64,000 nucleotides of DNA. Origin: Escherichia coli (GTDB lineage Bacteria; Pseudomonadota; Gammaproteobacteria; Enterobacterales; Enterobacteriaceae). Location: assembly GCF_046105845.1 (NCBI RefSeq), contig NZ_CP151004.1. One strand, 5' to 3'. Of the stretch, positions 42,214 to 43,885 are shown in pieces. How positions within the stretch are numbered: the stretch's first letter is position 1; every line of letters starts with the position of its first letter. The notes under the pieces are model-generated. The model did not search any database, was not told the origin of the DNA, and saw only the letters and a list, made by a program, of their open reading frames with translations. The position numbers were made by a program, and so were the translations under genes.

Positions 42214-43885
42214 ATGAATATAAAGACGCTTAACGTCAGCCTTTTGTCTTTTTCTATTATTACAGCATTGTTTCCGTTGAACGCGATGGCAACAAAATTA
42301 ACCATAGAGCAGCGCCTTGAACTGCTTGAAAATGAATTGTCGCAAAATAAACAAGAGCTAAGAGCAACACAGAATGAACTGGGGGTATATAAATCCCGAC
42401 TTTCGACCTTACAAAAAAGTATTACGGAAAATAAATACAAATCAGCCTCACTTGCTGAAATATCAGCGACATCTCCCGTCGCTGATAACATCAAAAATGA
42501 AAACGGTGAACAGAACTCGTCTGCCGCAGCGCATACTATAAATGGATCGCAGCAAGTTGCCGTTATTGAAAGTAAAGGCGACAAAACCACTATCGAAAGC
42601 GTGACCCTGAAAGATATCAGTAAATATATAAAGGATGATATTGGGTTCAGCTATCAGGGGTACTTCCGCTCAGGCTGGGGTACCGGAAATCATGGCTCAC
42701 CACAAACTTATGCAGCGGGTTCTCTGGGACGTTTTGGTAACGAGATGAGCGGTTGGTTTGACTTAACCTTAAATCAGCGTGTTTATAATCAGGACGGTAA
42801 AACGGCAAATGCGGTCGTTACCTATGATGGCAACGTAGGTGAGCAGTATAACGATGCCTGGTTTGGTGACAGTGCCAATGAAAATATCATGCAGTTCAGT
42901 GATATTTATCTGACAACGCGAGGTTTTTTACCCTTCGCGCCAGAGGCAGACTTCTGGGTAGGCAAACATAAACTCCCGCAATATGAGATCCAAATGCTGG
43001 ACTGGAAAACCTTAACCACGGATGTCGCTGCGGGTGTGGGGATTGAAAACTGGGCACTTGGTGTAGGGCTGTTTGATATGTCCTTAAGCCGTGATGATGT
43101 CGATGTTTACTCTCGTGATTTTACGCGTACCAGTCAGATGAATACCAATTCTGTGGATGTTCGTTATCGCAATATCCCGTTATGGGATGATGCAACATTA
43201 TCATTAATGGCTAAATATTCCGCACCAAATAAAACGGATCAACAACAAGATAATGAAAATGACGACAGTTATTTTGAAATGAAAGATAGCTGGATGCTGA
43301 CTTCTGTTTTACGGCAAAACCTGCAACGCGATACGTTTAATGAATTTACGTTACAGGTTGCCAATAATTCCTATGCCAGCAGTTTTGCCAGTTTCTCAGA
43401 TGCCAGTAACACGATGGCGCATGGTCGCTATTACTATGGTGACCATACCAATGGGATCGCCTGGCGTTTAATCTCTCAGGGCGAGATGTATCTTACTGAC
43501 AATATTATTATGGCTAACGCGCTTGTCTATTCTCATGGCGAAGATGTTTATAGTTATGAAAGTGGCGCTCATAGTGATTTTGACAGTATTCGCACCGTAG
43601 TAAGACCGGCCTGGATCTGGAATACATGGAATCAGACGGGGCTTGAATTAGGCTGGTTTAAGCAACAGAACAAAACACAGCAGGGTGTAACACTAAATGA
43701 ATCGGCTTATAAAACGACACTCTGGCATGCATTGAAAGTGGGTGAAAGTATTAGGTTCACGACCAGAAATTCGCTTCTATGGGACGTATATCAATATTCT
43801 GGATAACGAATTATCGAATTTTAAGTTTAATGAGAACAGCAAAGACGAGTTTATGGCCGGCATCCAGGCGGAAGTCTGGTGGTAA
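42214..43885 (+). CDS. bgcH: LamB/ScrY-family carbohydrate porin with N-terminal coiled-coil extension; apparent +1 frameshift near 43753
   Basis: 530-aa ORF (42214-43806) with signal peptide and coiled-coil ([35 protein letters not shown]). The +1 frame across 43757-43885 encodes [42 protein letters not shown]-stop, the LamB-type C-terminus, so the annotated ORF end is a frameshift artefact or lesion. Confidence 0.75.

Follow-up and report, generated by a model that had tools for sequence, protein, structure and literature searches.

Sequence comparison points to a two-nucleotide deletion and a probable pseudogene in the porin locus of a bgc-type operon of Escherichia coli

The porin gene of a bgc-type operon, located in a 64,000-nucleotide stretch of DNA from Escherichia coli (assembly GCF_046105845.1, contig NZ_CP151004.1; the whole stretch is referred to as the window), is very probably a genuine and recent pseudogene. 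The reading that accounts best for the data is that a one-off lesion arose in a small clone, that the gene no longer gives rise to a functional channel and that its loss is part of the stepwise decay of a dispensable operon. The evidence comes from alignments with intact alleles, from profile searches and a structural model of the intact porin, and from independent assemblies of close relatives.

According to the ORF list and the annotations of orthologous loci, the backbone of this region reads ydeE, eamA (38660-39580), the island, marB/marA/marR (45406-46494), marC and ydeA. The island between eamA and marB consists of six genes coding for a GntR regulator, the PTS subunits IIB, IIC and IIA, a LamB-family porin and a 6-phospho-beta-glucosidase, and it is accessory, being carried by 2553 of 5426 complete E. 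coli genomes. The regulator gene (bgcR-type; 39625-40323, minus strand) is divergently oriented and intact; annotated orthologues have 699 nt and Pfam assigns GntR and UTRA domains to its product. The other genes lie on the plus strand: an intact IIB gene (bgcE-type; 40522-40833) with the length of its annotated orthologues, a broken IIC gene (bgcF-type; 40948-41819), an intact IIA gene (bgcI-type; 41847-42158; annotated orthologue 312 nt), the porin ORF (bgcH-type; 42214-43806, 530 codons) and an intact 6-phospho-beta-glucosidase gene (bgcA-type; 43910-45349; annotated orthologues 1440 nt) for a protein of 479 amino acids. The latter belongs to the family-1 glucosidases, since the same gene in the assembly of ERR13115083 matches Pfam Glyco_hydro_1. 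Full length has been kept in the window by the regulator, IIB, IIA and glucosidase genes. Gene content and gene order, with a divergent GntR regulator gene and the series IIB, IIC, IIA, porin and phospho-beta-glucosidase, agree with those of the bgc operon for beta-glucosides and cellobiose. This operon, bgcR/bgcEFIHA of E. coli, was reportedly described by Neelakanta, Sankar and Schnetz in 2009 and is said by these authors to be silent under laboratory conditions. On the basis of gene content, the island is probably the published operon, also with regard to map position. A description of the five-gene bgc operon names the BgcR regulator, the PTS subunits BgcE, BgcF and BgcI and the phospho-beta-glucosidase BgcA, and leaves the porin without a name (PMC3585215). 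Of the complete RefSeq E. coli genomes (n = 5,426), none was at least 99% identical to the window over 44000-64000, the best reaching 98.6-98.8%. The lineage of the window seems to be poorly sampled, and the island and its flanks look mosaic, the number of differences per 500 nt being uneven. A Shigella origin was considered in view of the lack of the exact allele in complete E. coli genomes, but the arrangement of ORFs in the window resembles an ordinary E. coli backbone.

The ATG-initiated ORF at 42214-43806 encodes 530 amino acids. Its sequence is native up to residue 513; from 514 to 530 it is read out of frame and ends with ...YQYSG. Intact orthologues have 1674 nt and 557 amino acids and end with ...QAEVWW; correspondingly, the porin query spanned 1672 nt in the window vs 1674 nt in 36 of 39 sampled genomes. 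DNA alignment at the lesion with the intact alleles of RIVM_C037134, ECOR29 and AST215 revealed that the window is 2 nt shorter, GAAAG(C/T)ATTTTAGGTTCA being changed to GAAAGTATTAGGTTCA, and the window allele reads ...AGTATTAGG... at the deletion. In codons, GAA AGC/AGT ATT TTA GGT TCA became GAA AGT ATT AGG TTC A, i.e. TT was deleted from a run of four T's (43751-43753), a loss of two nucleotides being equal to a gain of one in terms of frame. The alignment places the lesion in the codons ATT AGG at 43750-43755. From there, an out-of-frame tail of 17 residues and a TAA stop (43753-43806) stands in place of the strands beta17 and beta18, as seen from the translations and from protein alignments with intact orthologues. 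The segment encoding beta17, the last loop and beta18 with its terminal aromatic pair is still present as a stranded 3' remnant in the +1 frame (43754-43885). The +1 frame is open from 43736 to the stop at 43883-43885, and its peptide is 100% identical to residues 515-557 of the intact 557-amino acid orthologues; in the profile search it also aligned with the C-terminus of maltoporin, far beyond chance.

Much of this had been anticipated. The original prediction, made from the letters of the window alone, had the porin ORF end at 43806 and the +1 frame continue to 43883-43885, had matched the +1 peptide to the LamB C-terminus and had assigned the gene to the LamB family, and all of this held. 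It had also ascribed the break to one extra nucleotide and had reconstructed ATT-TGG-TCA, coding for ESIWSRP, as the ancestral sequence. Both had to be given up: compared with the intact alleles, the window has a 2-nt deletion, and the ancestral peptide at the lesion is ESILGSRP in the orthologues, the postulated codons having been borrowed from LamB.

The closest intact allele sheds light on the age of the lesion. Apart from the TT deletion, the porin genes of AST215 and of the window are separated by just one SNP and a 6-nt indel that keeps the frame; AST215 was checked directly and has the synonymous AGT variant together with an intact T4 run. Since the two alleles are so similar and since the stranded 3' part has not diverged, the deletion is considered recent. 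The 6-nt polymorphism, located at ~43379, concerns a CAGTTT unit that is present in one copy in the window and in two copies in AST215, and leads to intact porins of 557 or 559 amino acids.

The intact orthologue matched the Pfam family LamB (PF02264) with residues 147-557 over the entire model (positions 1-378 of 378; 276 bits), whereas the ORF of the window matched with residues 147-513 and covered only positions 1-333 of 378 (229.8 bits). For the 45 model positions left uncovered, the coding sequence lies in the +1 frame, at 43754-43885. Sugarporin_N was found at residues 30-56 of the window ORF. As judged from these domain matches, the locus belongs by descent to the LamB/ScrY family, of which the present ORF is a truncated member. 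The relationship to porins of known structure is distant. A single-sequence phmmer search of the PDB with the intact porin gave no match and a profile of 35 family sequences was needed, which found maltoporin with an E-value of 5e-118 and ScrY with 5e-43; the intact porin also stays below the NCBIfam cut-off for LamB proper (204 vs 394 bits). In the AlphaFold model of the intact allele, the mean pLDDT is 85, with values above 90 through the barrel. A signal peptide region precedes a coiled coil like that of ScrY (helix 31-78) and 18 barrel strands, the last three of which are beta16 (493-508), beta17 (519-532) and beta18 (545-556). Its best fold matches were maltoporin and ScrY (1MPR, 1MAL, 1A0T) with TM scores of 0.75-0.78.

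Mapped onto this model, I513, the last native residue, is located after beta16 in the periplasmic turn that precedes beta17, and the product of the window keeps 16 of the 18 predicted strands. The 44 lost residues make up beta17 with the RPEIR motif (P518, R521), the final loop, and beta18 together with G550 and the WW terminus. P518, R521 and G550 are invariant across 35 homologues, and 31 of these, like the intact allele, terminate with W or F, mostly as WW. The window ORF lacks this C-terminal aromatic beta-signal and has gained 17 unrelated residues instead, the last of which is Gly. The loss of the last strand and of the aromatic signal had been predicted; the aromatic C-terminus is indeed gone, but the loss extends to two strands and the RPEIR motif rather than to one strand. 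During assembly of outer-membrane proteins, the C-terminal strand carrying the beta-signal pairs with strand 1 of BamA and then with the first strand of the protein itself, by which the barrel is closed (reviewed in PMC8292188). In view of this established role of the C-terminal strand and the beta-signal, BAM-dependent assembly is expected to fail, and the product of the window gene is almost certainly unable to assemble.

The distribution of the deletion was analysed in complete genomes and in read-derived assemblies. The segment 43700-43810 was matched by 2549 E. coli records, 2545 of which covered at least 80% of it. Not one of the ~2,545 complete E. coli genomes with the site reached at least 99% identity over 43700-43810, and the deletion is shared by none of them. 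All 30 of the matches listed spanned 113 nt vs 111 nt in the window, and at least 18 genomes among the matches listed were 98.2% identical over 43700-43810, which corresponds to the two-base gap alone. From the missing ≥99% match and from the spans of 113 vs 111 nt it follows that a short C-terminus is not the normal state of this gene; the orthologue comparison that had been proposed as a check thus came out in favour of the prediction. Outside the complete genomes, the exact 530-amino acid product is found on 5 public contigs, among them an NCBI contig of 4.74 Mb and contigs of the Logan assemblies of ERR13115083, SRR12605517 and SRR28309099. These three Logan assemblies also agree in the DNA that surrounds the deletion. 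Over 13 kb, a single indel is all that distinguishes the assembly of ERR13115083 from the window (otherwise 100% identity); that of SRR12605517 differs by one SNP (99.99%), both have the same porin junction, and the contig of SRR28309099 is an exact substring of the window. The frame break predicted from the window is genuine in that the continuous frame is not restored in any of the independent assemblies checked. On the basis of these assemblies, the TT deletion is a true mutation of one small, near-clonal group.

The porin is not the only gene of the island that is damaged. Comparison with the sister assemblies revealed a 451-bp deletion in the IIC gene with a junction at 41328 and a microhomology of 1 nt, which shifts the frame and removes ~150 codons. 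The resulting 158-amino acid IIC fragment is also found in the Logan assembly of SRR28309099; for the C-terminal IIC fragment, an exact-protein look-up returned no record, probably since the gene caller had picked another start. The assemblies of ERR13115083 and SRR12605517 have the broken porin gene together with an intact IIC of 440 amino acids. It follows that the IIC deletion is no artefact and that it postdates the porin lesion: it is absent from these two sisters and present in SRR28309099, which puts the porin lesion first and the IIC deletion later, in a sub-clone. The prediction that the locus is decaying, made with reference to an EIIC deletion, is borne out by these findings, with the addition that the lesions were sequential.

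Taken together, the following course of events is proposed. The T4 run after codon 513 most likely lost two of its T's to replication slippage. Translation past codon 513 would then proceed out of frame for 17 codons and terminate 79 nt early. The predicted product retains the signal peptide, the N-terminal coiled coil and 16 strands and is devoid of strands 17 and 18, RPEIR and the aromatic beta-signal; we infer that it would be exported by Sec to the periplasm, would be neither recognised nor closed by BAM and would be degraded by periplasmic proteases. The lesion would have arisen once in a small clone and was followed, in a sub-clone to which the window belongs, by the loss of 451 bp from the gene of the IIC permease; the whole would represent the stepwise decay of a dispensable, normally silent operon. 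The loss of the porin is assumed to be neutral. The glucosidase gene starts 104 nt past the premature porin stop, and a terminator scan of the plus strand over the extra untranslated stretch found no terminator-like site. Since only 79 additional, A/T-rich nucleotides would remain untranslated before the ribosome-binding site of the glucosidase gene and no terminator-like site is present, a strong polar effect on this gene seems unlikely.

Selection could also have inactivated the porin, for instance if its loss protected the cell from a phage or colicin with this receptor, or lowered the permeability of the envelope. Precedents exist in solved structures, in which the tail fibre of phage lambda is seen on LamB and a related tail fibre on OmpC, and the same gene has been hit separately in other strains. 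In a sample of 39 evenly spread genomes, the porin gene was found damaged independently in ~3: IS1 has inserted in strain 15.TR.026_OXA (locus L007, 2501-4951), an IS5-family element in strain VTB97432v, and in strain 1368KP the frame is shifted by -1 near nt 1400, the gene being labelled "frameshifted" by PGAP (locus L005, 2501-4173). Shigella boydii has an N-terminally truncated form of the porin. However, ~36 of the 39 genomes have kept an intact porin gene, and the later lesion in an inner-membrane permease fits the disuse of a whole pathway and not the avoidance of a surface receptor. Besides, the operon is reported by Neelakanta et al. 2009 to be silent under laboratory conditions. Adaptive loss is for these reasons regarded as improbable. 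In strain 1368KP the gene of the GntR regulator is also truncated (locus L005, 1-159). The 90%-identity protein cluster of the porin includes sequences of 6-phospho-beta-glucosidases, presumably fused or mis-called products of the neighbouring genes.

A pseudogene by sequence may still be leaky, and the site of the lesion deserves attention in this respect. The deletion puts the rare codon AGG in frame at 43753-43755 (AUU AGG U), i.e. a slow codon in the A-site exactly at the lesion. No codon is rarer here than AGG, which has a frequency of 0.7 per 1000 codons in 25 ORFs of the window and does not occur in intact bgcH. A ribosome pausing at AGG could slip by +1 onto GGU and thereby produce a trickle of assembly-competent porin that lacks only Leu514; the turn before beta17 would then be one residue shorter, which is its natural length in LamB and in most homologues. 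The trans-frame peptide predicted for a +1 shift at AGG is VGESIGSRPEIR; the tryptic peptide expected from the zero frame is VGESIR. In E. coli, a frameshift mutation in rpoB unveiled the sequence CCC-AGG-C, at which 5% of the ribosomes shift to +1 (Huseby et al. 2020, PMC7022156). CUU-AGG-C, the site in Ty1, follows the same principle (PMC7022156, PMC5009743), and shifting at the Ty1 site is favoured by an abundant tRNA for the Gly codon of the +1 frame (PMC5009743). At the site of the window, however, the P-site codon cannot re-pair: with tRNA-Ile(GAU), a shift from AUU to UUA leaves, by inspection, only the middle one of the three positions paired, unlike CCC to CCA or CUU to UUA. The split-frame arrangement is not conserved either, since it was found in 0 of ~2,545 complete E. 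coli genomes and in one near-identical clone only. Further, the operon is weakly expressed, so that tRNA-Arg(CCU) would not be depleted, and in the strain of the window the IIC permease is already dead. Rescue by read-through is accordingly held to be very unlikely, somewhat more so than adaptive loss. A weak Shine-Dalgarno-like sequence, GGTGA (43741-43745), precedes the AUU-AGG pair by 4 nt and is probably coincidental; the layout of GGTGA and AUU-AGG bears a loose resemblance to the +1 shift site of prfB.

Last, the deletion might be an artefact of sequencing or assembly, the true genome having an intact TTTT and a continuous gene of 557 codons. Indels in homopolymer runs are the commonest assembly errors, and the deletion occurs in no complete RefSeq E. 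coli genome. Against this, the 530-amino acid product and identical DNA at the site are present in three independent Logan assemblies and in the NCBI contig, and an error of 2 nt would be atypical for a run of only four T's. Since independent read-derived assemblies carry the same 2-nt deletion in the four-T run, an artefact is for all practical purposes excluded. A phase-variable contingency locus was rejected, the tract being only T4 (all intact alleles) or T2 (the clone) and not the 7-8 or more units of such loci, and no intermediate or variable tract lengths were seen among the matching E. coli genomes.

In sum, a recent, genuine pseudogene remains the preferred reading, and the ORF at 42214-43806 should be annotated as a frameshifted bgc-type porin pseudogene and not as a porin of 530 amino acids. 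The kind of event is familiar: this is an ordinary strain-specific pseudogene, which matters little beyond annotation. In this clone, a silent accessory operon for sugar uptake is being lost in datable steps, of which the first concerned the outer-membrane channel and the second the inner-membrane permease. It also illustrates that an ancestor guessed from a distant paralogue, here LamB, can give the wrong type of mutation, which was corrected by the true orthologues. Should the gene be leaky after all, it would represent in nature what rpoB CCC-AGG-C represents in the laboratory.

The lesion shares with rpoB CCC-AGG-C that an indel brings AGG in frame beside the lesion and that a +1 shift would restore the frame (PMC7022156). 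It differs in the P-site codon AUU, which does not allow re-pairing at +1, and in the gene, which is non-essential and poorly expressed. A second parallel is given by beta-signal mutants of outer-membrane proteins; PhoE without its terminal Phe is reportedly a subject of Struyve et al. in 1991, and a recognition motif for Omp85/BamA is said to have been reported by Robert et al. in 2006. Such mutants have in common with the porin of the window that they are deprived of the last strand and of the aromatic residue at its end, but the loss in the window is larger, comprising two strands and the addition of a junk tail, and it is a structural truncation and not just a loss of the signal. Compared to the LamB/ScrY family (PF02264; PDB 1MAL, 1MPR, 1A0S), the intact porin matches the whole LamB model, its predicted barrel superposes and its C-terminus has the same pattern ...SRPxIR...GxQxExWW, and the N-terminal coiled-coil extension of ScrY (Sugarporin_N) is also found in the bgcH-type porin. 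In contrast, sequence identity to LamB/ScrY is only ~22%, beta17 is preceded by a turn that has one residue more than that of LamB, and the copy in the window is without beta17 and beta18. The bgc operon of Neelakanta et al. 2009 is also among the closest known systems: the window has the same set of genes in the same order, but both its porin and its IIC gene are broken.
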